DNA of 64,000 nucleotides, taken from Candidatus Dojkabacteria bacterium. GTDB taxonomy: Bacteria; Patescibacteriota; Dojkabacteria; J137. This document shows positions 6,897-60,966 of this stretch, one piece after another. The position numbers and the translations under genes were made by a program. The DNA is taken from assembly GCA_030950485.1 (NCBI GenBank), contig JAUZRK010000001.1:103998-167997 (forward strand). Direction: 5' to 3'. The notes under the pieces were generated by a model, which saw only the letters and a program-made list of their open reading frames with translations, had not been told where the DNA came from and did no database searches. Each line of letters starts with the position of its first letter. Positions within the stretch are counted from its first letter, which is position 1.

Positions 6897-7691
6897 ATGG
6901 CAGAAAATACTATTGAATTACATATAACCAACGATCCATCAATAAAGGAGAGTGAAATACTTACTGAAGAGGGCTTACTAGACTTTTGGGCTGAAGATAT
7001 AAATTTTTCTTGGGATATATTATCGGAATTCTTTGAATATATAGGTAATAACCAATTGGATCCTCTTCAAACACTTAAAGCAAATTCAAATTCGTTCTTA
7101 CCTATGGTATTAGCAATAGATCACCTACCTAAAGATACGATGTACTTTGGGATTTGGCAGAGACCTTCGAAATACCTTGGCGAGGGAGATCATGAGCTCA
7201 TACTACAGGATAGACGCGTGCTTTTTAATTCTCTTATTAAATCTCAAGCAAGAAACAGCACTCCTCATCTATCTGATGTAAATAATATAATAAATAGCCC
7301 AAACATAGGCAAAACACTAGTTGAAAAACTGTCCCAAGATGGTATCGATCTATACACTAGATACCTTAGCTTTATGTCTGATAAATATCAGGTAGCACAG
7401 CTATCAGACAATGTAATAAATAACAAATTTTTTTGTGGGGCAAATTATGCAACATTCATCTTGACACAGGGTATACATATGGTATACGTTCTACATGATG
7501 ATCCATTCTCTAGGGATAATTTTGATTCGATATCAAGTTGTGAACTACTCACTCTAATATTTATATTATTAAACGACGAATATAAGGAACTTCATCAGTA
7601 TATAAATATCACTTATGGGATTGATAAAATGGTTGTCAAAAATGAAGATGCTAACTATATCCCTACAAGACAAAGTCAACAGTCTACCTAG
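6897..7691 (+). CDS. hypothetical protein
   Basis: 264-aa ORF, no recognisable motif. Confidence 0.4.
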   Translation: MAENTIELHITNDPSIKESEILTEEGLLDFWAEDINFSWDILSEFFEYIGNNQLDPLQTLKANSNSFLPMVLAIDHLPKDTMYFGIWQRPSKYLGEGDHELILQDRRVLFNSLIKSQARNSTPHLSDVNNIINSPNIGKTLVEKLSQDGIDLYTRYLSFMSDKYQVAQLSDNVINNKFFCGANYATFILTQGIHMVYVLHDDPFSRDNFDSISSCELLTLIFILLNDEYKELHQYINITYGIDKMVVKNEDANYIPTRQSQQST

Positions 7692-10344: not shown

Positions 10345-10365
10345 TAAATTTATTATTCAAACATT

Positions 10366-10758
10366 ATGAAATTAAAAAAAATTGATTCAATAGCAATTTG
10401 GTAAGAAAACTGGAGAGAGCTTGCTGATTGGTATAAAGACATTTTTAGCCTAGAAGAAAACATGACTTTAGATCTTGCTGATGATACTGGTACAAATTTA
10501 ATTATTGGATATGGGAGCGTATTATTCTGGATTGGCTATCATGACCAAATTAAAGGCAAAAGCAAAGATCCGTTAAGAGTGATGCCTCCATTTGAAATAG
10601 ATGATGTTTTTGAAACTGAGAAAGAGCTTAAAGAAAAGGGAGTTCAGATTATCGCAAATGCTCAGTTATCTCCTACTAAAGATTTCTATTATTTAACTAT
10701 TCAAGATTTAGATGATAATACTATTAACTTATATAGCTTTAACTTAAAAAATGACTAA
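10366..10758 (+). pseudogene. VOC/glyoxalase-family protein with an in-frame TAA at 10402-10404 (paralog of 56708-57109)
   Basis: ATG 10366: MKLKKIDSIAIW*ENWRELADWYKDIFSLEENMTLD.. aligns with the paralog ..ILFWSENPDELAKSYTDVLELE..; WIGYHDQIKGKSKDPLRVM vs WIGHHDSIKGVTKDPLRRM. Confidence 0.7.
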
Positions 10759-13865: not shown

Positions 13866-15593
13866 CTAGTGCTTACTCGCCTCCCACAATCTTTGATAAA
13901 CTTCATTATTCTTAATCAGCTCATCGTGATGTCCAGTACCAATAATCTCCCCTTTATCCATTACAACAATCCTATCAAAAAATGGTCCAGAGGAAATACG
14001 ATGAGTAATTGCAATCATCGCTGTGCTATGAAGTTCAGATAATGATTTGTAAATATTCTTCTCCGTAACTGTATCTAAACTTGCAGTAGCTTCATCTAAA
14101 ATTAGAATCTCCGGCTTAGTAACCAGAGCTCTAGCAATACAAATTCTTTGTGTTTCACCACCGGAGAGTTGTTTCCCTTTACTTCCTATAAGCTGATGGA
14201 TTCCGTCTTCGTACATTGAAATAAAATTCATTGCATCAGAGAGCTCCAACGCATCAACAACTTCTTTATCTGAAAGATCAATGTCACTAACTAATTGCAG
14301 ATTATCCTTAATGCTCCTACTTAATAGCTCATTTGCTTGAGGTACTACTTTTATATTCCCAAGTAATGAATCATTCTTAATATCTAATACATTTAAATCA
14401 TTTATATTTATCACTCCATCGTCTGGAAGATATAATTTCATTAAAAGCTTTGTTAGGGTAGATTTACCAGACCCAGAAGCTCCAACTATAGCGAGTTTCT
14501 CATTCTTATATATGTCTAGATTTATATTATTAAGTATTTTAGTACCTTCTAAATATGAAAAGTTAATTTTATTAAAGTTAACTTTTGTCCATTAACTGGG
14601 AAAATCTTTATCTCCTTCAGGAATCTTCCTCCCTATTTTAAAGATAGAAGATATTCTTTGTAATCCAGTTACGTTCTCTACTAAGTTTTCATAATCAGTC
14701 CAAACATTTGATGCTCTTGAGGTAATCTTTGTATAGTAAGCATATAATGTTACAGCAACATCAATATTCATATTCCCCTCAATAGCCATATATGCAACAA
14801 AAGCAAGTACTATAACTTCTGAAAGATCCAGCATTAAACTTTGAGATGCAGATGTAATTCTCTCAAACCTCCTTAATACTCTAGTACTATCAATGACTTT
14901 TTCATAAGCACTATCTAGATTTTTAAGTAACTTTGAAGTGATATTTAAAAACCTTACAGTTTTAATTTTTGAAGTAAACTCAAAAAGACTAGAATAGTTA
15001 TTTTCTTCCTCTTTTTGTAGTTCTAAATTAAGTTCTTGGTATTTTCTTGCATTTCTATTTACTGATAGAAAAAAGAAGATTAATATTATTATCGACCAAA
15101 TCCCAACTCTAACATCGAATAGCATTAATAAAATTATTGAGAAAAATAATTCTGCTACTCTTTGAAAAGTTGCAGTAAACATAATTTTCAAAATCATCCT
15201 AACTGCTTTAGATCCCAAGGATATTCTTTCTAGATAGCCTCCCTGAGCTTCATTTTCATGAAAGTCATAATCTAAAGTAAATAAATACTGTAGTGCAAGA
15301 ATTCTAGATCTATTTCTAATATATTCTGAAAGTACTTTTGTTTTATAAGCAACTATATTTCTTATTACTGTGACCAATACTAAGCTAATAGCTGTCAAAG
15401 CTATCATCTGGTAAATATTATCAAAATTCTCATTTGCAAAACTTCCAACAATCTTACCGTATAAAAAAGGTGGGATCATTGCAATTAAAGACACTACTAT
15501 AGTAACGCCAAAGTAAAACAATAATTTCCTTTTATATCCTTCTGTAAAAAAGGACATGTCTTTTAAAACATTTTTAATAGGGTAGTGCTGCAT
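13866..15593 (-). pseudogene. ABC exporter (TMD-NBD fusion, MsbA-like) interrupted by an in-frame TAA at 14592-14594
   Basis: TMD ORF (14592-15593) and NBD ORF (13866-14441) are in one frame. The 150 nt between them read WTKVNFNKINFSYLEGTKILNNINLDIYKNEKLAIVGASGSGKSTLTKLL (Walker A). LSGGETQRICIARAL signature and DEATASLD Walker B lie downstream. Confidence 0.8.
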
Positions 15594-48233: not shown

Positions 48234-48797
48234 CTAGACAACTTTTACATATATTCTAAATTCATACCTAATCTCACACTCTAAAACTCTAGTTACAAAT
48301 TTCTGACTTTTCTCTATCTTCCATATTGAATCATTAATTTCGGGGAAGAAAATATCACCTTCTATTTCATGATCTAAAACAGTTAAATATAACTTATCTG
48401 CTTTATCTATAAATTCATTATAAAGACTCGCACCTCCAAAAATAAAAATCTCTTCAGAACCAGGAGAGTTGTTTGCGATTTCTAAAGCGCTTTCAATATT
48501 ATTAGCTAATTGCCCCTCACCCGTTTCTAAATCACTATTTGAGCTAAGAATTATATTTGTTCTGCCTGGTAGAGTTTTTGGTTTATCTAATTTCTTTCCA
48601 TCTGAACCCTTAAATGATTTAAAACTAGAGATGGACTCGAAGTTCTTTCGCCCCATTATTATCGGATGTCCCATTGTAAGTTTTTTGGTTCGTTGATAGT
48701 CTTCAGTTATATGCCAAGGGATTGTATTACCCTTTCCTATAACATTATTTTTAGACATTGCTGCGATTATTGAAATCATTCTTTTTATTGATACCAA
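48234..48797 (-). CDS. folA: dihydrofolate reductase
   Basis: MISIIAAMSKNNVIGKGNTIPW and GRKNFESI motifs. Confidence 0.75.
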   Translation of the reverse strand: MVSIKRMISIIAAMSKNNVIGKGNTIPWHITEDYQRTKKLTMGHPIIMGRKNFESISSFKSFKGSDGKKLDKPKTLPGRTNIILSSNSDLETGEGQLANNIESALEIANNSPGSEEIFIFGGASLYNEFIDKADKLYLTVLDHEIEGDIFFPEINDSIWKIEKSQKFVTRVLECEIRYEFRIYVKVV

Positions 48798-48930: not shown

Positions 48931-49962
48931 TTGAAAATGACTGAAAAATTAATAAAAAAAATATTAAAAAAATATGGATATGATGTTGTAAAAATATATC
49001 CAGAGCAATCAGGGTATCGTAATAAATCTTATGCGGTTGATGTGATGCATTTGTATGATTCTGTAAGGGCAAAAAATATTTTGCCCCTACAGAGAAAACG
49101 AAATTTGATCCTTTATAAAAATGAGCAAGGAATTATTAAAAAAATACAAAACGCAAACGCAGTTTCAAATTTCCTCGCAGAACAAGGCATTCCATCAAGA
49201 AAATCTCTTGGGAAAATAATTAGGTTGCATGATGAGAAAATAGAAAGATTCGCATGTTTGTACAACTATCTTCCAGGAGAAACCATTTCATGGGAAGCTT
49301 ACAATAAAGAACATATTAAACTATTAGGGAAGGCAATGAGCGATATGCATTTTTATTTAAAGGATTATTCTAAAAAGGATAAGTTGGAAAGTATTGATGA
49401 AATCATTAAAAACCAGGCGAATAAAATGATTCAATATTTTAAAAAAGAGGGTGTTAGAAATGCGATGGTTAGGAAATTGGGATTGATATGTAATATAAAT
49501 TTTATAAACAAATTCGTAGGGGCCGAAAATCTTCGGCCCCTACAAAACATATATTCAGATCAATCTATTCCCCTCCACATGGACCTCGTCCGTAGCAACG
49601 TTCTATTTGATTTAGATAAAAATAAAGACATATTTATTTCAGGAATCATAGATTTCGAAAAAGTAGCAAAGGGAAATCGAATATTTGATATCGCGAGAAC
49701 CTTGGCGTTTCTTCTTGTAGATTGTAAATATAAAGATCCAGTTAAAATTAGGAAATACTTTTTAATAAGTGGATATAAAAAAAGAGAGCTAGAAGATTTA
49801 CCAGATTTAACTCATTTAAACTATTTAATTTACTATTTTTTAACATACGATTTTTATAAATTCTTAAGACATAATCCTTATGAATCATTAAACTCGAATG
49901 AGCATTTTATTCGTACGAAAAACTTTTTACTAAGTAAAAAAATCCTGATAAGCTGTAGTTAA
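48931..49962 (+). CDS. APH/choline-kinase-like phosphotransferase
   Basis: Brenner motif HMDLVRSNVLFD and IIDFEK; carries two in-frame palindromic insertions. Confidence 0.6.
   Translation: MKMTEKLIKKILKKYGYDVVKIYPEQSGYRNKSYAVDVMHLYDSVRAKNILPLQRKRNLILYKNEQGIIKKIQNANAVSNFLAEQGIPSRKSLGKIIRLHDEKIERFACLYNYLPGETISWEAYNKEHIKLLGKAMSDMHFYLKDYSKKDKLESIDEIIKNQANKMIQYFKKEGVRNAMVRKLGLICNINFINKFVGAENLRPLQNIYSDQSIPLHMDLVRSNVLFDLDKNKDIFISGIIDFEKVAKGNRIFDIARTLAFLLVDCKYKDPVKIRKYFLISGYKKRELEDLPDLTHLNYLIYYFLTYDFYKFLRHNPYESLNSNEHFIRTKNFLLSKKILISCS
49061..49092. repeat. palindrome gtaagggcaaaaaatattttgcccctac embedded in-frame in the kinase gene (SVRAKNILPLQR)
   Basis: family A element, one arm mismatch. Confidence 0.7.
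49515..49546. repeat. palindrome gtaggggccgaaaatcttcggcccctac embedded in-frame in the kinase gene (VGAENLRPLQN)
   Basis: family A variant, perfect 12-bp arms. Confidence 0.7.
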
Positions 49963-52182: not shown

Positions 52183-53138
52183 AATTCTTCGACTGGAATG
52201 AATACGCATTTAAAAGTAAGAGTGATATCAAATCATTAAAACCATTGGTGTTTTTAGCCGCTCCGAGGAAATTAAGTGAACAATATGTAGTAAATTTATT
52301 CAAGAGTTATGCTACGAGTTCCAATGTACTTATAGGTATAGCTAAAGAGGACTTTATTAAAGGTTTTGAAGACCAAGAGCAATTTCGTACTTTGAAGCTT
52401 ACTGATATAGAAAATTTTGTCGATAAGGTTCGGAAGTCTAAGGCTAAAGATCGACTGCATTTTATTGAATACTTCCAAGATGATCTAATCCATATTTTAG
52501 AGAAGATACCTTTTAAAAAAGTACTGTTTGTTAACGGGTCATGGAGTAGAGTCTTCCATACAAGGTCTGAATTTTATACTTTGGTAAAAAATAAAATAGA
52601 TTATGAACTAGTCTCTGCGTTTAGTTCGGAAGAAGAGGCGAAAGAGTATTTTAAAAGTATAAAGTCAAAAGTACAAAAAGATACAAAGAAAATTAAAATT
52701 GGACATATATTTAAAGATGATAACGAGGCGTTTGAACTTGTAGATAACATAGCTAAATTCAGTTTTGACAATTCTTTTCAGACCGGAGCAGTCTTAACTA
52801 AGAATAAGAAGTTACTTGCTTATAGTTGGAACAGGGTCGTGCCGTATGAAACGTACGCTTTGTTAAACGGTTATCAAAGAGAAATTCATTTAAGTCCGCC
52901 TAACGATACTAATCATTACGATACTAATCACGCGGAGGTTGAAATGTTAATTAAGGCGAATAAAGAAAATATTGATTTAGCTGGAACGACTCTTTATATA
53001 AATTTATTACCTTGTCCTAGTTGCGCAAGAATGATTTGCAATACTGAAATTTCTGAGATTAAATATAAGATCGATCATAGTGAGGGTTATGCGTTTGATT
53101 TGCTCAAAAAAGCTGGGAAGGAGGTGGAGAGAGTTTAG
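52179..53138 (+). CDS. unknown N-terminal domain fused to a CMP/dCMP-type zinc-dependent cytidine deaminase domain
   Basis: HAEVEML .. PCPSCARMI (H[AC]E..PCxxC) in the C-terminal 140 aa; overlaps the upstream gene by 4 nt. Confidence 0.55.
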   Translation: MKFFDWNEYAFKSKSDIKSLKPLVFLAAPRKLSEQYVVNLFKSYATSSNVLIGIAKEDFIKGFEDQEQFRTLKLTDIENFVDKVRKSKAKDRLHFIEYFQDDLIHILEKIPFKKVLFVNGSWSRVFHTRSEFYTLVKNKIDYELVSAFSSEEEAKEYFKSIKSKVQKDTKKIKIGHIFKDDNEAFELVDNIAKFSFDNSFQTGAVLTKNKKLLAYSWNRVVPYETYALLNGYQREIHLSPPNDTNHYDTNHAEVEMLIKANKENIDLAGTTLYINLLPCPSCARMICNTEISEIKYKIDHSEGYAFDLLKKAGKEVERV

Positions 53139-53469
53139 AGTTATGGGTTTTGGGTTTATAGTGTACTAAAATTTTCGTACATTCTTTAAAAATTTAATCT
53201 GTATTATTCACCTCATAGGGGGATAGAAAACCTAAAGATCTGTATTAATCCGTTTAATCAGTTAAATCTGTGTTCTATTTTCAATGGTCAAATTGAACAC
53301 TGATAAAACTGATCAGTACTGATTCTATTACAATTTGAACAATTTACTTTTGACTTTATATTTTTAACTTTTTACTTTATTTATAGTTAAAGGGATCATT
53401 TAAATGTTTAGTTATAAGCCAACCGGCATACGGGGTTTGATATAGTAAACTAAACAATTCAGCTCTTAA

Positions 53470-53640
53470 AAAAATTAGTGCAATCCCCTCCTACGGAGGG
53501 GTACCCGACAGGGCAGGGAGGGTAGCGAGCATTTAAAAAGCTCTCGAGTCAGGATTTAACATACCCAACCCCTTCCGTATTAGCTACGCTAATCCACCTT
53601 CCCGAAGGGAAGGATTAAAACATAAATACAGAGTGAGACT
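53470..53640. ncRNA. GC-rich structured island upstream of thyA (candidate riboswitch or small RNA), flanked by AT-rich direct repeats
   Basis: hairpins cccctcc/tac/ggagggg, ccttccc/gaa/gggaagg and gtgaga/ctttttt/ctcac; long-range gggagggtagcgagc vs gctacgct..ccaccttccc complementarity. Confidence 0.3.
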
Positions 53641-53719
53641 TTTTTCTCACAACTTTTATTTTAGAATAATTAGGATAATTTGCTTTTGACTTTATACTTT
53701 TAACTTTTTACTTTGCACT

Positions 53720-54673
53720 ATGATCCATCCAGAATACGAATACCTAAAACTTTTAGCGAAGCTTTTAAAAAATGGTAAGGGAAAAAAGACTAGAGGGATA
53801 CATGGAGGGAAATCTCTTTTCGGATATCAAATGCGATTTGATTTTCGACATGGATTTCCAGTTTTAACTACGAAGAAAATGCCTTGGAAGATTATGACGA
53901 GGGAGTTACTTTGGTTCATTTCTGGTTCTTCAAATATTAGGAAGCTACAAGAAAAGGGGATTAAGTATTGGGATGATTTTGCAGATACTGAGGGAAATCT
54001 CGGTCCGGTTTATGGTGTTCAGTGGAGAAAGTGGCCTGCTTTCACGCCTTTAACTCAACCTAAACCTGACTTTTATGCGCACGAGATGAGTGAAACAGAT
54101 TCGTTTAAATCTGATTTTCCTAAGCCTAAATATTGGGTTGATGAGAATGGAGATAAACATGAGTTTGATAATAAAGTTGGTTTGTATCAGAGGACTGAAC
54201 TTGATCAGTTAAAGTGGGCAATTAGTGAGATTAAAAATAATCCCGATTCTAAGGCGATTATTGTTCAAGCTTGGAATACTGCTTACTTAGATTCGATGAG
54301 ATTACCTCCTTGTCATACTATGTTTCAATTCGATGTTACTAAGGGTAAGTTAAGATTACATCTTTATCAAAGAAGCTCTGATGTATTTCTAGGGTTACCG
54401 TTTAATATTACGCAGTACGCTCTTTTATTAGCTATGGTCGCGCACGTTACGGGCTTAGAGGCGAGAGAGTTTGTTGTTAGTATCGGTTCGGCTCTACTTT
54501 ATTATAATCATATTGAGCCTGCGAAGGAGCAGCTTAAAAGAAAACCTTATCCATTCCCAAAACTTTGGTTAAATCCGGAGGTTACGGATATTGATAATTT
54601 TAGCATTAAGGATATAAAGAGGAAGGGGTATGAGGCTCATCCAAGGATTAAGGGGGAGTTGGTAGTGTTATAA
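53720..54673 (+). CDS. thyA: thymidylate synthase ThyA
   Basis: catalytic Cys in LPPCHTMFQF; 317 aa with a typical ThyA insert. Confidence 0.8.
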   Translation: MIHPEYEYLKLLAKLLKNGKGKKTRGIHGGKSLFGYQMRFDFRHGFPVLTTKKMPWKIMTRELLWFISGSSNIRKLQEKGIKYWDDFADTEGNLGPVYGVQWRKWPAFTPLTQPKPDFYAHEMSETDSFKSDFPKPKYWVDENGDKHEFDNKVGLYQRTELDQLKWAISEIKNNPDSKAIIVQAWNTAYLDSMRLPPCHTMFQFDVTKGKLRLHLYQRSSDVFLGLPFNITQYALLLAMVAHVTGLEAREFVVSIGSALLYYNHIEPAKEQLKRKPYPFPKLWLNPEVTDIDNFSIKDIKRKGYEAHPRIKGELVVL

Positions 54674-55046
54674 ATTAAAACGATTAACAACCTAAATTTA
54701 TGAAATACCTTTTGCATCCATAAAATACTGGATTGCATAACTAAAAAGGTGCTACACTTTATATACAACTTAGCTGTTGAACGAATCAAGAGTATTCTTA
54801 CCTCTGCTCTTGTTAATTATCATTTGAATTTTGATCATGTAGTGACTCTGATACTTGATCAGTATTTAAATACTGAATTATTTTATTTATTAATATACTC
54901 TTTATGAAGTATAAAACCAAATCAGAACGAATCCAGCCCTTGGCTCAAAAGCTCTTGCTACTAGCTTATTCAGAGGTTATTCATAAAAATAAAGCTTATA
55001 CAAATACAATTATCCTGAATAAAGCACATCTTACACTCAGTACAGT

Positions 55047-55160
55047 CTCTAGAAATTTACGATTGAAGGGATGTAAAATACAAACCCGGTGCAGTCTCGA
55101 GTGATTTACGACCGAAGGGATGTAAATTGTATCGAGAGGCGGACACCCCCTCCGCTTCGC
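55047..55160. repeat. two tandem copies of a 35-bp unit containing the dyad ATTTAC-N12-GTAAAT, followed by a GC-rich hairpin
   Basis: gtctctagaaatttacgattgaagggatgtaaaat / gtctcgagtgatttacgaccgaagggatgtaaatt. Confidence 0.5.
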
Positions 55161-55175
55161 TCCAGGCACTCGACA

Positions 55176-56615
55176 CTACACTTTTATAATAAGCTTATTA
55201 TAAATATCAATATGCCCCTGGAGCATTTTTCTTAGAGTAAATTTATTCTCAAAGCTATCTCTACAAACGCTCCTATCAACTTGATTAATTTTCTCCATCA
55301 CTTCAACTAACTCATCGACAACCCTAGACTCACCATAATAGAAATCTCTCACCTTCTTCATCTTACTCTCATAATAACTCTTTCTCTTTTCCCGGTCAGA
55401 ATCATTAATAACAAAACCATTTTTCCCATTTTCTATCAGCTCTTTTGTAGCCCCATTATCTAAACCTATAACCGGAGTCCCACATGATAAGGCCTCTATA
55501 GTAACCATTCCAAACGGCTCCTTAAATATAGAAGGTACTAACAACGCCTTAGCATTCCCTAAAAATTTCTGCTTAGCTTTGTCGCCTGAAACGTATCCAA
55601 CGTATTCAACTGTATCATTTAGTTCAGGCGCAATTACAGAATTCCAATATGAATCATTCGACTCATCTGAATAATGCTTTCCTGCAATCTTTAGAGTTAC
55701 GGGTTTCGAGTTTCGGGTTGCGAGTTCCTCATTATATTTTTTTACTGCAGCTATTGCGTAGTGGACCCCTTTTGGTTCAATTATTCTCCCGAGATAAGCA
55801 AAATATTCTGTATCATTTTGGCCAGCAGGAGCAGGACTTGGCTCACCAGCTGGAGATGGGTTGTACCCTGGTCCTAAATATTTTGGCTTAAACCTTTTTT
55901 CATCAATTCCATGATAAACATTCCCAACCCAATTCGTATCATCCGGCATATCTTCTCTTTGAGATAGAGACATTGAGATAAAATTTCTATCTTTATATTT
56001 CGGTAAAATAGTTCGATATTTCGTTAGAAAAGAGTAGGGATCATGATGCGTAAATACAACTGGCTTATTACAAAGCCCGCTCATCTCAAGTGCGATCTGT
56101 TCTTCCAACATGTAAACATGAACAATATCAAACATATCATCATTAGCCATTTCGTAGGCTTTGGCTATTATTTCAGATTGAAAATGTCTAGAGAGAGTAG
56201 TGAACAGTAAGGGATGTTTTTTAAGGAGTTCTTTTAGACCGTAACCCCTAGTTTCCAGTTCTTCTTTCAGTAGGGTTTGGTCTGCGGTGATGTTTTTTAC
56301 GGTAGGGGCAAAATATCTTTTACCTTTACTCTTTTTTGTTGGATCAAAAAATCTTTTGCCCTTACTGTTATCTCGACCAACAACCCCAGGCGAAAACAAC
56401 GTAACCTCAGCTCCTGCCTCGGCAAGACCATTTGCAAGATCAATAGCAAGATCTCCCGGAGAAAATATATTATCAGACATCAATTCATCCGACATAAAAA
56501 TATGCGGACAAACGAATGCAATTCGTATTGGAAAATTAGGGGCTGTCATCTGCTCTCGTAGGGGCAAAATATTTTTTGCCCCTACGGATTCGATTACATT
56601 ATTTTTCTTCCTCAT
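55176..56615 (-). CDS. GT4-family glycosyltransferase with several in-frame repeat insertions
   Basis: EPFGMVTIEALSCGTPVIGLDNG near the C-terminus; family A palindromes at 56293-56368 and 56557-56586; family C repeat at 55694-55726. Confidence 0.6.
   Translation of the reverse strand: MRKKNNVIESVGAKNILPLREQMTAPNFPIRIAFVCPHIFMSDELMSDNIFSPGDLAIDLANGLAEAGAEVTLFSPGVVGRDNSKGKRFFDPTKKSKGKRYFAPTVKNITADQTLLKEELETRGYGLKELLKKHPLLFTTLSRHFQSEIIAKAYEMANDDMFDIVHVYMLEEQIALEMSGLCNKPVVFTHHDPYSFLTKYRTILPKYKDRNFISMSLSQREDMPDDTNWVGNVYHGIDEKRFKPKYLGPGYNPSPAGEPSPAPAGQNDTEYFAYLGRIIEPKGVHYAIAAVKKYNEELATRNSKPVTLKIAGKHYSDESNDSYWNSVIAPELNDTVEYVGYVSGDKAKQKFLGNAKALLVPSIFKEPFGMVTIEALSCGTPVIGLDNGATKELIENGKNGFVINDSDREKRKSYYESKMKKVRDFYYGESRVVDELVEVMEKINQVDRSVCRDSFENKFTLRKMLQGHIDIYNKLIIKV
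56557..56586. repeat. palindrome cgtaggggcaaaatattttttgcccctacgg in-frame in the GT4 gene (ESVGAKNILPLRE)
   Basis: family A element; degenerate copies at 56293-56330 and 56343-56368. Confidence 0.75.
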
Positions 56616-56707
56616 CTAGAAAATCTAGATCTAGTTCATCAGAAAGACCTTCTTCGTTGTAATCGTATGTATCTGTATCAGCCATATTTTTGTTTTAATA
56701 TAAAATA

Positions 56708-57109
56708 TTATAACTTACCCATAAATTGCCAGCAATTTCCTTCAGGATCTTTCCAAGCACAAACATAGACTTGGTTCTCGACAGTAGCAAATGGAGTAAG
56801 TATAGGTTCTTGAATAATTTTACATCCAGTATCTCTAACTTTCTCATACCACTTTTGAACTTCATCTGTATTTAAATTTATCATTCGTCTAAGCGGGTCT
56901 TTAGTCACGCCTTTTATAGAATCATGATGGCCTATCCAAAGAATATTCGTGTCGCTCAGTTTTAAATCATGGCCATAATCTTTTTCTAAACCATCTTTCG
57001 CTGGGATGTCAGTTTTAACTAAATATTCTAGTTCTAAAACATCAGTGTAAGATTTAGCAAGTTCGTCTGGATTCTCGCTCCAGAAAAGAATGTATTTTGA
57101 TTGAAACAT
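56708..57109 (-). CDS. VOC/glyoxalase-family protein (intact paralog of the 10366-10758 pseudogene)
   Basis: 133 aa; WIGHHDSIKGVTKDPLRRM. Confidence 0.5.
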   Translation of the reverse strand: MFQSKYILFWSENPDELAKSYTDVLELEYLVKTDIPAKDGLEKDYGHDLKLSDTNILWIGHHDSIKGVTKDPLRRMINLNTDEVQKWYEKVRDTGCKIIQEPILTPFATVENQVYVCAWKDPEGNCWQFMGKL

Positions 57110-57129
57110 AATTTATTAGCGTAATTAAT

Positions 57130-58611
57130 TTAATCTAACACAATCTCCTCATCAATCTCCGCATTAGGATCTCGATCAACTCGATCAAAGTTATTAAATA
57201 AAACTCCCAGAGACTCTGCTTTATCTTTATTCTCTCTAAGATAATCAAATAGACTTCCCATTTTATTTACCCCGTTTCCTGTTTCTCGACCCAACTCGAT
57301 ACCCGCAACCCGTAACTCACCTCCCGCTACTCCTAACTTAATATTCGCAGCTACTCCAATCATCGCAGCATTATCTCCAGTCAGCTTAGAAGAGTAGGGA
57401 TACTTTAATTTAACATCATTCTTCTTACATAAACTTCTAAATTCTGATCTTAATCTCTTACTTGCAATAACCCCTCCACCAAGCCAAAGTTCACTTGGAT
57501 TATGCTTCTTTATAGCTCTTTCTAATTTAACTTTTAATTGAGTAATTGCCGAAGCTTCAATCATTACGCATAGATCATTTATTTGATCTCCCGATAAGTT
57601 CTTAGTTTCTTTATTAAGTTGATCTTCAATAGTTATCTCATCTTTTACCAATGAATTAGTTAATTCTTTAAAAGCAGTTTTTAAACCTGAAAAACTAAAG
57701 TTAAAATCTCCAGATCTATACATAGGAATTGGAAGAGAGTAGCTAGTGCCACTTTCTTTATTAGTACCTATAACATTTGTGCTTTTATTATTCTTTTTTA
57801 TTTCAATTTTAAATTTCTTTCTTTGATCATCTGCAAACCTACTAACTGTAGGACCTGCAGGATATCCTAATCCAAGCATACGCCCAGCCTTATCGTAATA
57901 TTCTCCACATGAATCATCTAAAGTAACCCCAATTTTTTCGTAATCTCCAATCCCATTTACTTTAATCATTTCCGTATGCCCCCCAGATATAAGAAAGCCC
58001 AGTACTGCTTTTCCTTCCCTTGAGGGAAGGTCCCTGAAAGGGGGATGGGTGATTTGACCATGTTCTTTATCGTGCTTAATTTTTACCTTAGAATTTCTCT
58101 CAACAAAACCAGACAACAAATGCCCTTCCATATGATTAATAATCATCAAAGGCTTATCAAATTTTTCAGCTAAAGCAATGGCCTTTCTAACTCCAACCTC
58201 TAACGCAATAGCTAATCCAGGACCATAAGTAACAGCAACTAAATCGACTTCACTCATATACTTTCTTAAATCACTTTCTTGTGTTTCCCCCTCTCCTGGG
58301 AGAGGGCTGGGCCTGTCCGAAGCTGCTGCATCGTTGCTGGCGGAGTGAGGGATAGCTCTTTTTAAAGCTTCCACCACTACATTATCAATCCTCTCTGTAT
58401 GAGCTAACTTAGCAAGGCTTGGCACAACACCTCCATATTTTTCGTGGTATTTTTGTTGAGAAGGCATTACGCTAGATAGAACAGTAGTACCTCTAACAAT
58501 TGAACAAGATGTTTCATCACAAGATGTATCAATCGCCAAAGTTGTAATTTCGTTTATAGATTTAGAATTCATTAGGTAATTATACCAAATGAAATTAGAT
58601 CGAACCTGCAA
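57130..58611 (-). CDS. tsaD: tRNA N6-threonylcarbamoyladenosine synthase TsaD (Kae1/Gcp), extended by insertions
   Basis: LAIDTSCDETSCSIV and INHMEGHLL motifs; 493 aa vs about 340 typical; contains a family B palindrome (58287-58307) and a family C repeat (57285-57318). Confidence 0.7.
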   Translation of the reverse strand: MQVRSNFIWYNYLMNSKSINEITTLAIDTSCDETSCSIVRGTTVLSSVMPSQQKYHEKYGGVVPSLAKLAHTERIDNVVVEALKRAIPHSASNDAAASDRPSPLPGEGETQESDLRKYMSEVDLVAVTYGPGLAIALEVGVRKAIALAEKFDKPLMIINHMEGHLLSGFVERNSKVKIKHDKEHGQITHPPFRDLPSREGKAVLGFLISGGHTEMIKVNGIGDYEKIGVTLDDSCGEYYDKAGRMLGLGYPAGPTVSRFADDQRKKFKIEIKKNNKSTNVIGTNKESGTSYSLPIPMYRSGDFNFSFSGLKTAFKELTNSLVKDEITIEDQLNKETKNLSGDQINDLCVMIEASAITQLKVKLERAIKKHNPSELWLGGGVIASKRLRSEFRSLCKKNDVKLKYPYSSKLTGDNAAMIGVAANIKLGVAGGELRVAGIELGRETGNGVNKMGSLFDYLRENKDKAESLGVLFNNFDRVDRDPNAEIDEEIVLD

Positions 58612-58639
58612 CTTTTTTATACAAGTTCCAGTATTTATA

Positions 58640-58929
58640 AGCAGTGTTTTGATTTACTCTAACTATTAGTGAGTCATGTGCAATTGGCTCGAAGTCTGAC
58701 TTTTCTGGCTCACCTGTTATACCATTTACTTTTCGATATGTATCAAGTATCTCAAGAATAGAAGTTTCATTTGGCTGAATCGTTATACCTATTAAGTCTA
58801 TCTGTGAGTCCTTTCAAGCTTCTCTCAGAAGGATATTCGTGTCGACCTGAAGGCAATGCACGTGCATAATCCTCTAAACATGTAACCTCATCAATCGTAT
58901 CCTCTCTTTCAAAAATTTTTTTCAGACAT
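58640..58929 (-). pseudogene. decayed small gene (at least two frameshifts, one in an A7 run at 58916-58922)
   Basis: reading across frames gives MSEK|KIFEREDTIDEVTCLEDYARALPSGRHEYPSERSLKGLTDRLNRYNDSAK|PNETSILEILDTYRKVNGITGEPEKSDFEPIAHDSLIVRVNQNTAYKYW.. Confidence 0.4.
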
Positions 58930-59182
58930 ATTACTAATTCTTAAACGCTGAATTATAGCATCAAACTACTATCCCATTGCAAATTCAAACATTAGCGCAG
59001 TATCAAGTGCTTTTCGAGAGAAACGAGAAAAATGTATCGAGATACGGGAACAGAGTTATTCTCTATCCCTACTTCTCATTTCAAGCCTTGTCCAGCACTT
59101 GCCCCTCAACCCTAGTCTCTAGTCTCTAGTCTCTAATCACCAATATTATGATAAAATACACGATCAATATTAAAAAGATCAC

Positions 59183-59644
59183 ATGTCTAAATGCCTAGTC
59201 CTATATGGGACACTAACAATGAATACAGAAATAGTTGCGGAGAAGCTACACGAAGCTGTTGGTGAATTAGGTGTATTTGATGAATTAGAATTGATGAATA
59301 TGATTGAAATAACTGATACCTCTATTCTTGAAAGCTATGATTTTATTATAGTAGGTACTTCTACTTGGGGAGAAGGAGATTATAATCCGGATACAGATGA
59401 ATTTATTTATTTGCTTGAAGAGCAAAATCCCAATTTAGAAGGTAAGCCTTATTCAATTTTTGGACTTGGCGAAATTTCTTATGATGATTATTGCGGTGCT
59501 GCTAAAAATTTAGACAGAATGTTTTCAGATGATTTCAAAATGGTAAAAAAAGGTGAGTTATTTACTATTGATGGATATCCTGAATACGAGATATTAGAAC
59601 TGGTAAGAACCTGGATTAATACTATCTTAGAATCAAATATATAG
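59183..59644 (+). CDS. flavodoxin
   Basis: CLVLYGTLTMNTE flavodoxin signature and IIVGTSTWGEGD. Confidence 0.7.
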   Translation: MSKCLVLYGTLTMNTEIVAEKLHEAVGELGVFDELELMNMIEITDTSILESYDFIIVGTSTWGEGDYNPDTDEFIYLLEEQNPNLEGKPYSIFGLGEISYDDYCGAAKNLDRMFSDDFKMVKKGELFTIDGYPEYEILELVRTWINTILESNI

Positions 59645-59646
59645 AA

Positions 59647-59847
59647 TTATTTAGACCCAAAAATCCTAATTGCTACGTATATTCCAAAAGAAGAAAACAT
59701 TAAGAAGAATGTTGTAAGTAATGCTTTCCCTACTACGTCACCGTCAACTACTCCCCAGATTCCTAGAACTACAATAAATGCACTAATAACTAATACAGAA
59801 ATTATAGTTAAACCCAATGCTTTTCTCATTTTTTGTAATGAAGTCAT
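59647..59847 (-). CDS. small membrane protein
   Basis: 66 aa, two TM helices. Confidence 0.35.
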   Translation of the reverse strand: MTSLQKMRKALGLTIISVLVISAFIVVLGIWGVVDGDVVGKALLTTFFLMFSSFGIYVAIRIFGSK

Positions 59848-59862
59848 ATTTATATTTTTAAA

Positions 59863-60438
59863 CTATAAATTTATTATATCATTTATCAGTTCAGGATAAT
59901 CATATCCATGGTCGAAAGCTTCAGTTTCTATTAATTCAATGTTTTTAAATTCACCAAATTGCTCATTTATAAATTCAAAACTTCCTAATGGATCATTTGA
60001 ATTCTGAATGATAGTTATTTCTAATTTTGTTTTTCCAAGAACCTGCTTATATTTTTCTAACCTCTCATTTTTAGAATCTTCCTCCCAATTCTGAATCGGC
60101 AATCCCATAAAAACAACTTTATCAATCTGTTCTTCATAATCCTCAATCAGATTCAAAGAGAGTAGCGTCCCAATCGACTTAGCAACTATACTGTATTTCT
60201 CCCTCTCTTGGGAGAGGTCCGGGGTGAGGGTTTTCGGCACGATACCAAATTTATCACTCATCTCCTTCTCAATAACCCCCAACTCATAACTCCCTACCCA
60301 AGACTCATAACTCACATCATCCCATTTCCTCCATCTATGTTTAATTACATTATGTCCAGATTCCTCCAAAGCATCAGTAACTGATTTCCATTCTGCTTCG
60401 TTGTATATACCTTGTCCTGGTAGATAGAGTATGTTCAT
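59863..60438 (-). CDS. alpha/beta-hydrolase-like serine esterase with an in-frame family B palindrome insertion
   Basis: nucleophile elbow IVAKSIG; palindrome ccctctcttgggagagg (60199-60218) encodes DLSQERE. Confidence 0.45.
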   Translation of the reverse strand: MNILYLPGQGIYNEAEWKSVTDALEESGHNVIKHRWRKWDDVSYESWVGSYELGVIEKEMSDKFGIVPKTLTPDLSQEREKYSIVAKSIGTLLSLNLIEDYEEQIDKVVFMGLPIQNWEEDSKNERLEKYKQVLGKTKLEITIIQNSNDPLGSFEFINEQFGEFKNIELIETEAFDHGYDYPELINDIINL

Positions 60439-60468
60439 ATTATTTTAATTTATTCCAATATTCATTTT

Positions 60469-60966
60469 TTATATATTTCTGATCTTTGTACTTTGAATCA
60501 GAGATTTTTTTGCAATTAGCTTTGCGTCTTCTAAATACCTTTCTGTATAAACTCCTCTTATAACCGAGAGCATCATTAGCTTTTCCAAACTAATAACCAA
60601 AAAATCTTTTTCATCTAAAGCATTATCTTTTAATTCATCGTATCCAAAAAGCATAATACTATCCCAAAGTTCAAATTCATAAATTAAAATTCCATGATCT
60701 CCAAAAAGATCTGAGAATTGCGATTTTTCTTTAAAACCAGATTTATGTGGCTCTTCTAAAATATCTGCCTCATCAATCAATTTTTTAGAAAGTTCTAAAT
60801 GATCCCTTCTTATAAGAATCATGTCTATATCTTTATCCGATTCTCTAAGCTCATGATACATCATTGCAACTCCTGAAACTAAAAGTGGCTTATCCTTAAA
60901 TTTAAAATCTAATTTTGAAAGATTTATAAACTTCAGTGCTTTTTGTTTAAGATTTTTCTCATTCAT
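60469..60966 (-). CDS. minimal nucleotidyltransferase (pol-beta-like NTase fold)
   Basis: VSGVAMMYHELRESDKDIDMIL (GS..DxD). Confidence 0.45.
   Translation of the reverse strand: MNEKNLKQKALKFINLSKLDFKFKDKPLLVSGVAMMYHELRESDKDIDMILIRRDHLELSKKLIDEADILEEPHKSGFKEKSQFSDLFGDHGILIYEFELWDSIMLFGYDELKDNALDEKDFLVISLEKLMMLSVIRGVYTERYLEDAKLIAKKSLIQSTKIRNI

Follow-up and report, generated by a model that had tools for sequence, protein, structure and literature searches.

Probable BoxC-class repeats between and within genes of a Candidatus Dojkabacteria bacterium

Introduction

Why should two unrelated genes of one bacterium, tsaD and a small hydrolase gene, both contain GC-rich palindromes that are translated in different reading frames? 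The question is raised by a 64-kb stretch of DNA from a Candidatus Dojkabacteria bacterium (hereafter, the window), for which a palindrome family lying in frame in these two genes had been predicted. BoxC, PIT, and triplex-motif repeats have been on record for about 30 years without an assigned function or spreading mechanism; they were reportedly treated in earlier work by Bergler/Bachellier in the 1990s and by Hoyne and Maher in 2000. Rickettsia palindromic elements (RPEs) are palindromes of an AT-rich reduced genome that lie in frame in conserved genes, at surface positions, and are passively translated. Such in-frame inserts in conserved Rickettsia genes are said to have been described by Ogata et al. 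in 2000. RPEs are 100 to 150 bp in length and specific to Rickettsia, and they do not possess homopurine/homopyrimidine arms with a third block. The mobile GC clusters and byp elements of yeast mitochondria are GC-rich palindromic islands in an AT-rich genome that also occur in coding sequence.

Results

Both 17-mers of the original prediction are present exactly on the plus strand, with CCCTCTCCTGGGAGAGG at 58289-58305 in tsaD and CCCTCTCTTGGGAGAGG at 60201-60217 in the hydrolase gene. Dinucleotide-preserving shuffles gave an expectation of 0.01 matches, and the observed count was reached in 0 of 100 shuffles. The two copies indeed differ in reading frame (agc cct ctc cca gga gag ggg and gac ctc tcc caa gag agg gag, respectively), so that SPLPGEG is situated in the segment ..DAAASDRPSPLPGEGETQESD.. 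of TsaD and LSQERE a few residues ahead of IVAKSIG in the hydrolase. The related intergenic hairpin that had been placed at 53481-53497 does exist, but it is located at 53485-53501.

A search for pyrimidine-first GC hairpins yielded five copies in the window (wA to wE), compared with approximately 0.07 expected (30 shuffles), and no purine-first hairpins. All five copies are clustered at 53.4 to 60.2 kb, within 7 kb of the 64-kb window, with wC and wD being located in tsaD, wE in the hydrolase gene, and wA and wB between genes. The GC islands measure 41, 54, and 82 nt. The intergenic copies wA and wB point toward each other, their hairpins being separated by 95 nt, and the 20-nt second loop of wB carries a hairpin of its own (ATTAGC-GTA-GCTAAT). 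The palindrome of wE can be paired in two alternative 6-bp registers, CCTCTC/GAGAGG or TCTCCC/GGGAGA (60198-60215). A separate palindrome family of the GTAG type is also present in the window, at 49516-49543 and 56557-56586.

Table 1 Positions of the repeat copies, their blocks, and their host genes in the window.
Feature	Position	Strand	Sequence	Remarks
wA, intergenic	53485..53522	+	hairpin CCCCTCC-TAC-GGAGGGG, 53485-53501 (= CCCCTCCTACGGAGGGG); G blocks GGGCAGGGAGGG, 53511-53522	6/7
wB, intergenic	53570..53613	-	hairpin CCTTCCCGAAGGGAAGG, 53597-53613; third block GGAAGGG, 53570-53576	7/7
tsaD (480 aa)	57130..58572	-		host of wC and wD; invariant motifs HMEGH and GDNAAM intact
wC hairpin (8 bp)	58013..58030	+	CCTTCCCT-TG-AGGGAAGG (in full, CCTTCCCTTGAGGGAAGG)	second tsaD copy, variable loop 2; encodes DLPSREGK
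wC third block	58043..58050	+	GGATGGGT	8/8 against reversed purine arm; 12-nt loop between
TsaD insertion 1 (aa 74-102)	58267..58353	-	IPHSASNDAAASDRPSPLPGEGETQESDL	occupancy of 0.02 among 67 homologs
wD hairpin (8 bp)	58289..58306	+	CCCTCTCC-TG-GGAGAGGG	inside tsaD (sense, minus); encodes SPLPGEG
wD G-rich third block	58343..58350	+	GAGTGAGG	7/8 against reversed purine arm; follows 36-nt second loop
Small alpha/beta (serine) hydrolase (191 aa)	59863..60438	-		host of wE
GC island (54 nt), hydrolase codons 64-82	60195..60248	-	FGIVPKTLTPDLSQEREKY	candidate 18-codon insertion
wE palindrome	60201..60217	+	CCCTCTCTTGGGAGAGG	inside hydrolase gene (sense, minus); encodes LSQERE
wE third block	60221..60230	+	GGGGTGAGGG	contains GGTGAG; 6/6 match

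The description of the element as a palindrome in frame in unrelated genes thus holds, but the palindrome is not the whole element: a downstream G-rich third block also belongs to it. We compared 11 copies from three Dojkabacteria genomes, comprising the five in the window, four in L120, and two in L203. On one strand, a pyrimidine arm was followed by a purine arm and then by the G-rich third block in all 11 copies. The third block matched the reversed purine arm at 6/7 to 9/9 positions, perfectly so in seven of the 11 copies, and wA to wE all follow a mirror rule in which G is placed over G and either A or T over A, none of them having more than one mismatch. Arm and third block co-vary, with a mean match of 0.955 for true pairs and 0.775 for swapped pairs, a value as high as the former being obtained in 0 of 20,000 permutations; CCTTCCCT/AGGGAAGG/GGATGGGT and CCTCTC/GAGAGG/GGTGAG provide an example. 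Tested individually against its own shuffled flank, the third-block match was significant for wC (p = 0.01) and wE (p = 0.02) but not for wA or wD (p = 0.21 and 0.23), each of which has one mismatch. The third block of wD reads CCTCACTC (..IPHS..) on the sense strand of tsaD. An antiparallel third-strand rule scored 0.955 and a parallel rule 0.899 over the 11 copies, a slight edge that resolves polarity weakly; the near mirror symmetry of the arms keeps the two rules from being told apart, and triplex geometry is thus not proven by so small a difference.

The first loop is 2 to 4 nt long in the window copies and therefore lies inside the 1- to 6-nt definition of intrastrand triplexes (ITxF). 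The second loop is outside this definition in four of the five window copies, measuring 9 nt in wA, 12 nt in wC, 20 nt in wB, and 36 nt in wD, compared with 5 nt in wE (3 nt in the E. coli register). The short-loop definition does include L120a-c and the two copies of L203, with second loops of 2 to 3 nt, and copies from L120 and L203 have TTA and CTA there, the canonical sequences of 3 nt.

None of the intragenic copies disrupts the reading frame, and they are evidently translated. The C-rich strand is open in three of three frames for wC, wD, and wE, whereas the G strand is open in one or two of three. The encoded peptides vary with frame (SPLPGEG, DLSQERE, DLPSREGK, PPLLKERA), given that a single DNA motif is being read in different frames. 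Every intragenic copy has its G-rich strand on the antisense side; this orientation bias is only suggestive of anything beyond the effect of stop codons, because stop codons on the G strand largely account for the antisense placement.

The deposited TsaD protein comprises 480 aa, starting at the ATG at 58572 and matching NCBI Q9M91_03960 at 100%; the 493 aa originally assigned to it correspond to a TTG-started open reading frame. Its excess length also shrinks when the proposed yardstick of about 340 aa is replaced by that of its Dojkabacteria relatives, which have a median of 397 aa (range, 361 to 452). TsaD nevertheless contains three lineage-specific insertions, whose positions are those of the main stretches of low confidence in an AlphaFold model that is confident elsewhere (mean pLDDT of 88, with the main dips in the 10-residue blocks 71-100, 161-190, and 421-440). 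In this model, pLDDT is low across the inserts and secondary structure is lacking there, and the peptide of the first was not conserved in homologs. This first insertion corresponds to a GC island at 58277-58358 and is approximately 54 nt longer than in P0002, the nearest relative. An element at loop 2 of TsaD was found in four Dojkabacteria lineages that are scattered over the tree, the sister of each being without it. The tsaD genes of L203 and L207 are about 90% identical, yet only one contains the element block; in this one close comparison, the alignment indicates block replacement rather than a clean insertion.

In the hydrolase, the GC island directly precedes the strand leading to the AKSIG nucleophile motif. 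The protein has 17 to 18 more amino acids than its homologs, although protein alignment leaves the assignment of this excess to the island ambiguous: with only six distant homologs available, deletion of aa 42-59 scored 85.6 bits and deletion of the island 84.7 bits. The AlphaFold model is poor over aa 37-76. The intragenic copies add sequence that is missing from homologs, at low-confidence loops of the predicted proteins.

Further copies were found not only in the window but also in three other independent Dojkabacteria assemblies and widely across bacteria. L203 contains a converging inverted pair at 15379-15467. Pyrimidine-first hairpins outnumbered purine-first hairpins by 9 to 0 over 874 kb of CPR DNA. 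The surroundings of tsaD on 80 other CPR contigs, 810 kb in total, contained no such hairpin, which rules out a CPR-wide feature and indicates that the repeat is lineage-restricted. The 17-mer matches listed from a scan of a genome collection represented diverse phyla, and 75 of 125 had GGWGWGGG or GGGWGWGG within 45 nt; no Dojkabacteria were among the matches listed, so that the scan sets no copy number for the source genome. Versions of the motif in Clostridiales and Anaerolineae are arranged in BIME-like arrays. A candidate intragenic case in an AT-rich uncultured bacterium (L099) was rejected, being a three-motif array that precedes the likely start of a pilin-like gene.

In 4415 of 5426 E. 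coli genomes, the wE region (60190-60231) matched sites that carry no annotation, most of the matches having 80 to 90% identity across about 41 to 45 nt. The one E. coli site inspected, in the rhaD-rhaA spacer, consists of CTCCCTCGCCCTTTCAGGGAGAGGGCCGGGGTGAGGGTGA and an inverted partner and is an intergenic BoxC copy; its arrangement is that of the TMECO type B/type A pair (PMC4666352). By eye, GGGAGAGGtCCGGGGTGAGGGT of wE agrees with E. coli BoxC type B, CCG loop included, at 21 of 22 positions.

Discussion

Our results suggest, with a probability of about 65%, that the window palindromes are repeats of the BoxC/PIT/triplex-motif class, present in genes only where the frame is kept and there translated passively as a disordered loop. 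The element class itself has already been described, with the BoxC/PIT/TMECO "intrastrand triplex" repeats having the three-block layout (Holder et al. 2015, PMC4666352). What is new is the presence of recognizable in-gene copies of a BoxC-type repeat in a CPR bacterium, which extends the known range.

The repeats of E. coli, other Proteobacteria, and Cyanobacteria share the 5'-to-3' block order, a class II purine motif, with the window copies. Further points of resemblance are GGGAGAGGxCCGGGGTGAGGGT with its type-B CCG loop in wE, the type-A-like loops of the L120 and L203 copies, the converging inverted pairs (wA/wB and that of L203), and a multicopy distribution that is patchy among related genomes. 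None of the window copies matches the strict TMECO consensus (CCCTCNCCC N3-6 GGGNGAGGG N3 GGGNGAGGG) with at most one mismatched triplet. By eye, wE matches it at 8/9 positions in the purine block (GGGAGAGGT), 9/9 in the third block (GGGTGAGGG), and 6/9 in the pyrimidine block, with the loop CCG, whereas the arms of the other window copies differ from the consensus. Three of the five window copies are inside genes and predicted to be translated, whereas E. coli copies are always intergenic (PMC4666352, PMC5100583). The arms are 6 to 8 nt long here and 9 nt in E. coli, the second loops are often long (9 to 36 nt) and some contain a hairpin of their own, and the host is a Patescibacteria (CPR) genome with a GC content of 32%.

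How such copies might arise and persist can be outlined as follows. Single-stranded DNA of the element could fold into the hairpin and, by analogy with the E. coli prototype, which forms a purine-motif triplex in vitro although none has been seen in vivo (PMC4666352), into a triplex. Copies appear to arise repeatedly, probably by recombination or repair on single-stranded DNA rather than by classical transposition. A copy landing in a gene would survive only if it added a multiple of three bases, contained no stop codon, and it fell in a tolerant surface loop. Because the C-rich sense strand is open in all three frames, it would then be translated passively into a disordered loop rich in Pro, Ser, Leu, Gly, and Glu. 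The insert peptide would have no role of its own, with any activity, such as replication pausing or local instability, being exerted by the DNA.

Other short palindromes invite comparison. REP/BIME sequences are likewise short GC-rich palindromes that build mosaics, but REPs are extragenic, and 5' GTAG is absent from all five window copies. The GC clusters and byp elements differ in being organellar and unrelated in sequence, and some are skipped by translational bypassing; the conserved frame of the window copies favors read-through over such bypassing.

As repeated palindromes in frame in conserved genes at structurally tolerant sites, the window elements look RPE-like, and they might be nonautonomous transposons of the MITE type, which would move by cut-or-copy transposition through a transposase acting in trans, carry terminal inverted repeats, leave target duplications, and be compatible with coding by chance. 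Terminal inverted repeats of 9 bp (CGACCTCAC...GTGAGGTCG) are present in the L119 element, several copies share the AT-rich left flank TACTG(Y)(A)TTT, and L207 tsaD carries a different GC-rich insert of 96 nt with AATAA on either side. Around wC, wD, and wE, however, no terminal repeat or convincing target-site duplication was found, and no RAYT or other transposase-like Pfam family was detected in the 10 nearby ORFs scanned. Among 2.9 million viral contigs, the 17-mer is all but missing (four matches). In length (40 to 80 nt) and three-block layout, the window elements also differ from the longer RPEs. Holder et al. did not find a link of the E. coli triplex motifs to mobile elements (PMC4666352). 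We therefore consider mobilization of this type unlikely.

The elements might instead act in RNA, as GC hairpins of the mRNA that pause ribosomes or protect the transcript, or as internal terminators or attenuators. A GC hairpin of 6 to 7 bp is predicted in the sense RNA of every intragenic copy, and the arms resemble Shine-Dalgarno and anti-Shine-Dalgarno sequences (GGAGG/CCTCC), but the folding energy is ordinary for the composition (z = -0.8 to -1.0, and z = 0 for the third tsaD insert). No Rfam family was detected in the whole window at gathering thresholds, with a permissive search of 53000-60500 returning one chance snoRNA match only. A simple hairpin would give the co-varying third block no role, and PIT elements showed neither promoter nor terminator activity in E. 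coli (PMC4666352). A general function in RNA is thus improbable, although wA and wB may be stems of a structured small RNA (folding z = -3.8).

Selection might also have acted on the proteins, with the inserts serving as Pro/Gly/Glu-rich flexible linkers that provide TsaD and the hydrolase with a new surface or interaction and with the palindromy being incidental. In-frame retention in an essential gene with its catalytic motifs preserved, and the presence of such segments in the same TsaD loop of four lineages, are consistent with this notion. It is nonetheless very improbable, given that the peptides differ according to the frame in which the one DNA motif is read, that the DNA blocks co-vary, including the block outside the palindrome, and that the motif also occurs between genes; the inserts, moreover, are unstructured and of low confidence in the model and are missing from sister lineages. 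Even slighter odds attach to a G-quadruplex/hairpin switch of the sort proposed by Kaplan et al. (2016) for the E. coli elements, the prototypes of which fold as G-quadruplexes in vitro (PMC5100583): wA has four tracts of at least three G residues (GGGGTACCCGACAGGGCAGGGAGGG), but it is the only one of the 11 Dojkabacteria copies with four G3 tracts and loops of at most 9 nt. Chance or an assembly artefact is barely credible, even though the source is a metagenome-assembled genome and a uniform base model puts the chance matches to the 17-mer in 596 Gb at the order of a hundred, since only 0.01 copies are expected in the window, an identical TsaD is present on two database contigs, analogous elements occur in the independent assemblies, and the reading frames are intact.

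If the repeats are of the BoxC class, a more far-reaching and doubtful possibility is that they represent an actively spreading, coding-compatible element of Patescibacteria with a preferred landing site, acquired separately by at least four Dojkabacteria lineages in one and the same TsaD loop, the C-rich strand being the sense strand each time. In that case, a single family spanning phyla, moved by a shared mechanism on single-stranded DNA, would underlie the near-identity to E. coli BoxC; alternatively, host or foreign DNA could have been captured during repair in DNA-scavenging episymbionts. Were such spreading to be real, BoxC-type repeats would constitute a general and overlooked source of protein loop insertions. 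On the BoxC-class reading alone, copies in the essential gene tsaD, predicted to be translated and situated in the same loop in separate lineages, would mean that these repeats can remodel proteins in the manner of RPEs, and pairs differing in presence or absence of the element, such as L203 and L207, would provide a natural experiment able to define the mechanism of insertion. The repeats would also account for some of the "oversized" proteins and unusual GC islands of AT-rich CPR genomes, and annotators should bear in mind that a Pro/Gly/Glu-rich loop such as ..SPLPGEG.. may derive from a repeat.

Results

Two GC-rich palindromes had been proposed to form a family lying in frame in unrelated genes, tsaD and a hydrolase gene. 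Both 17-mers were found exactly, at 58289-58305 and 60201-60217 (0.01 matches expected from shuffles), the peptides that they encode and their differing reading frames were as described, and the proposal was supported overall. The window (32% GC) contains 13 GC-rich hairpins, compared with 0-5 (mostly 1-4) in shuffles. Five of these form a distinct class, designated wA to wE, in which the 5' arm is all pyrimidine and the 3' arm all purine; approximately 0.07 such hairpins were expected, and no GC hairpin of the opposite, purine-first polarity was present in the window. The five are confined to 7 kb, with wA and wB being intergenic, wE being located in the hydrolase gene, and wC representing a second copy within tsaD in addition to wD. 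The genome of the window was examined over one 70.8-kb contig. About 11 of the 34 GC-rich islands of the window (≥30 nt, ≥60% GC) are concentrated at 53400-60300, a possible hotspot of small GC-rich insertion where local GC is 0.35-0.37 versus ~0.31 elsewhere.

Features of the window in the region of the repeat copies, with values for the encoded TsaD protein
Feature	Position	Strand	Pyrimidine arm / purine arm	Third block	Match	Sequence or value
dCMP deaminase, thyA	region of repeat copies	+
wA hairpin	53485-53501		CCCCTCC / GGAGGGG	GGGCAGG	6/7
wB hairpin	53597-53613	-	CCTTCCC / GGGAAGG	GGAAGGG	7/7
GT4 glycosyltransferase	55176-56615	-
Glyoxalase	region of repeat copies	-
tsaD	57130-58572	-				insert peptide stretch ..SDRPSPLPGEGETQ..
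wC hairpin	58013-58030		CCTTCCCT / AGGGAAGG	GGATGGGT	8/8	CCTTCCCTTGAGGGAAGGTCCCTGAAAGGGGGATGGGT
wD hairpin	58289-58306		CCCTCTCC / GGAGAGGG	GAGTGAGG	7/8
Flavodoxin gene	region of repeat copies	+
Small alpha/beta hydrolase gene	59863-60438	-
wE hairpin	60201-60217		CCTCTC / GAGAGG	GGTGAG within GGGGTGAGGG	6/6	TCTCCCTCTCTTGGGAGAGGTCCGGGGTGAGGG
TsaD pLDDT dip	aa 71-100					74, 57, 64 (10-residue blocks)
TsaD pLDDT dip	aa 161-190					54, 52, 71 (10-residue blocks)
TsaD pLDDT dip	aa 421-440					66, 51 (10-residue blocks)

Each hairpin is followed downstream, on one strand, by a G-rich box that corresponds to the reversed purine arm (A or T being allowed opposite A). The match of this third block was significant against shuffles of the copy's own flank for wB (p = 0.03), wC (p = 0.01), and wE (p = 0.02), and was not significant for wA and wD. 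Among 11 copies, comprising the five of the window together with four from L120 and two from L203 (other Dojkabacteria genomes), the third block tracked its own purine arm, with a mean match of 0.955 versus 0.775 for swapped blocks and with none of 20,000 permutations being as high. Several L120 and L203 copies have a compact form with a second loop (purine arm to third block) of 3 nt, such as TCCCCTCT-TC-AGAGGGGA-tta-AGGGGTGT and TCCTCTCCC-TTA-GGGAGAGGA-cta-AGGTGAGGG.

The same layout has been described as class II purine-motif intrastrand triplex motifs, formerly BoxC and PIT elements (Holder et al. 2015, PMC4666352). In E. coli the consensus, known as TMECO, is CCCTCNCCC N3-6 GGGNGAGGG N3 GGGNGAGGG; it occurs as two types with TTA or CCG as the second loop, and inverted pairs are common (PMC4666352). 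The E. coli motifs are invariably intergenic, are not linked to mobile elements, act as neither promoters nor terminators, and form a triplex in vitro that was not detected in vivo; triplex motifs are associated with local genomic variability (PMC4666352). Apparently the same elements were read as a G-quadruplex/hairpin switch, and found between genes only, by Kaplan et al. 2016 (PMC5100583). Second loops exceed the published motif definition in four of the five window copies, and the copies do not separate triplex geometry from a parallel arrangement. A BLAST search with 60190-60250 yielded matches in 4415 of 5426 complete E. coli genomes (median, 4 places per genome), mostly with 80-90% identity over ~41-45 nt and with every listed site unannotated. 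One of the matches, located in the spacer between rhaD and rhaA, has the sequence tttttCTCCCTCGCCCTTTCAGGGAGAGGGCCGGGGTGAGGGTGA and an inverted partner of the TTA type close by; from the purine arm onward it equals wE (tatttCTCCCTCTCTTGGGAGAGGTCCGGGGTGAGGGTTT), by eye, at 21 of 22 positions. The element is a member of the known BoxC/PIT repeat class; whereas the E. coli copies are always intergenic, those of Dojkabacteria occur both between and inside genes, a new phylum and a new, translated context.

Three triplex-type motifs are also arrayed upstream of a pilin-like gene in L099 (CASERN010000002.1, 5897-5998; uncultured bacterium, 32% GC), one of them with blocks exactly as in wC and a canonical TTA second loop. 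In the window, CCCTCACCC (minus strand, GGGTGAGGG) occurs singly, with no adjoining hairpin, at 48514-48522 in a DHFR gene (48234-48797, -), where it encodes ..ETGEGQ.., and may be a remnant or due to chance.

Among the genome-collection matches listed, the 17-mer was found in many phyla, including Clostridia, Anaerolineae, Bacteroidota, Melainabacteria, Verrucomicrobia, and Proteobacteria; 75 of 125 occurrences have a GGWGWGGG or GGGWGWGG box located ≤45 nt away. The purine arm is often separated from the G box by a second small hairpin, an arrangement also present in wB, L120d, and the L203 tsaD copy. Of the 19 copies of the 17-mer in other AT-rich phyla, 15 were intergenic, and the 17-mer was essentially absent from viral contigs (four matches). 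Pyrimidine-first hairpins with a stem of at least 7 were restricted in the CPR set to the genome of the window and L120, with none of this class detected in 810 kb around tsaD in 80 other CPR metagenome contigs; L203 also carries the hairpin class, and L119 has it in a degenerate palindromic form.

The window TsaD matches NCBI protein Q9M91_03960 (Candidatus Dojkabacteria, Patescibacteria/CPR MAG; contig JAUZSD010000008.1, GCA_030949735.1) with 100% identity. That it is longer than its orthologs, as the original prediction held, was confirmed with revised lengths, namely 480 aa versus a median of 397 aa in an alignment of 68 Dojkabacteria-type proteins. Residues 74-102, which hold wD, and residues 418-441 showed alignment occupancies of 0.02 and 0.03, respectively, and wC sits in a loop of variable length (loop 2) that follows HMEGH. 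All catalytic motifs of the protein are intact. In the AlphaFold model (mean pLDDT, 88), the main dips in pLDDT coincide with these three insertion sites. The lineage-specific insertion at aa 418-441 (57283-57334, GELRVAGIELGRETGNGVNKMGSL) is GC-rich with the G-rich strand as sense; it lacks the pyrimidine/purine hairpin, and its fold is not unusual (z = 0).

The G-rich third block is antisense in every intragenic copy (wC, wD, wE, L120b, L120d, and the L203 tsaD copy). In the islands of wC, wD, and wE, the C-rich strand is open in all three frames and the G strand in only one or two, which explains most of this orientation bias as well as why the element can occupy a gene whatever the frame. 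The downstream reading frame is kept by all intragenic copies, an argument for translation rather than skipping.

The element occupies the same TsaD loop in identical orientation in the window genome, L120, L203, and L119, with a similar order of parts: a TCACCC box, a small hairpin, and then the pyrimidine/purine hairpin. These four proteins are scattered in a neighbour-joining tree of the 68 proteins, where each has an element-free sister (P0002, P0015, P0093, and P0044), although a single-protein tree of this kind is weak evidence. The tsaD genes of L203 and L207 are ~90% identical at the DNA level and differ at the loop by a 123-nt block (57% GC) versus a 108-nt block (31% GC), a change that looks like block replacement rather than clean insertion with target duplication. 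The overall pattern favours recurrent gain, or recurrent loss, at a TsaD site that is tolerant or preferred.

Another repeat type is present in a different loop of the same gene in L207: a clean, in-frame, GC-rich insertion of 96 nt (32 codons; 7131-7226, tsaD of P0044) that L203 tsaD lacks. AATAA borders this insertion on each side, and within it are the hairpin CCGCAGC-AG-GCTGCGG and a GTAG. An 8-bp palindrome encodes the conserved TsaD peptide LSAFAER directly 5' of the loop-2 element in L203 (CTTTCGGC-ATTC-GCCGAAAG, about 10357-10376) and L120 (CTTTCTGC-TTTT-GCAGAAAG, about 10368-10387), but is absent from the window and L207.

Only six homologs of the hydrolase, all distant, were available, relative to which it has 17-18 extra residues between W39xD41 and IVAKSIG. 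The fit to these homologs was 85.6 bits with aa 42-59 deleted, 84.7 with the GC-island residues (about 61-80) deleted, and 71.7 with none deleted. The two deletions fit equally well, and the GC island spans precisely 54 nt (18 codons) and lies where a mediocre structural model is unstructured; the insertion is therefore likely, though not proven, to be located at the island.

Other repeats lie near the copies. GC-rich palindromes of a separate family, with a GTAG start like REP elements, are found at 49516-49543 (GTAGGGGCCGAAAATCTTCGGCCCCTAC), inside and in frame with an APH-type kinase gene (48931-49962, +), and at 56557-56586 (CGTAGGGGCAAAATATTTTTTGCCCCTACG), within codons 10-20 of the GT4 glycosyltransferase gene, with a further site at 56536-56545. 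They presumably represent the first family that the original prediction implied. A ~36-nt unit (CAGTCTC.AG..ATTTACGA..GAAGGGATGTAAA) occurs twice, 49 nt apart (55043-55078 and 55092-55127), directly 3' of a 66-aa ORF and adjoining the GC-rich stretch GAGAGGCGGACACCCCCTCCGCTTCGCTCC. In the ~570 nt of non-coding DNA that separate tsaD from the flavodoxin gene, a stretch at 59100-59139 has a C-box-like GCCCCTCAACCC followed by three tandem CTAGTCT heptamers and then CTAATCA.

Discussion

The repeat described here has three co-varying blocks and a fixed polarity, matches BoxC/PIT elements, is found at intergenic as well as intragenic sites, and gives proteins lineage-specific loops of low model confidence.

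Alternatively, wA and wB could be stems of a small RNA, given that they lie inside 276 nt whose predicted folding is unusually strong (z = -3.8), with a bidirectional terminator-like hairpin (53633-53650) near its 3' end, and that their island is framed by a direct repeat. This 57-nt repeat (53322-53378 and 53658-53714; 84% identical, promoter-like TTGACT..TACTTT) delimits a 336-bp unit upstream of thyA. Rfam gave no match for 53322-53714; the region is possibly a small RNA that lacks annotation, or else a promoter that has been duplicated. As to the route of spread, the data lean against classical transposition, as no target duplications and no nearby transposase were found and viral carriage is nearly absent.

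We infer that the element is a structured DNA repeat whose encoded peptide has no role. Frame and loop tolerance would act as a filter on intragenic copies, whose translation would be passive, and any activity would be exerted at the level of single-stranded DNA, with hairpin or triplex folding possibly giving rise to pausing or instability, as has been proposed for E. coli.
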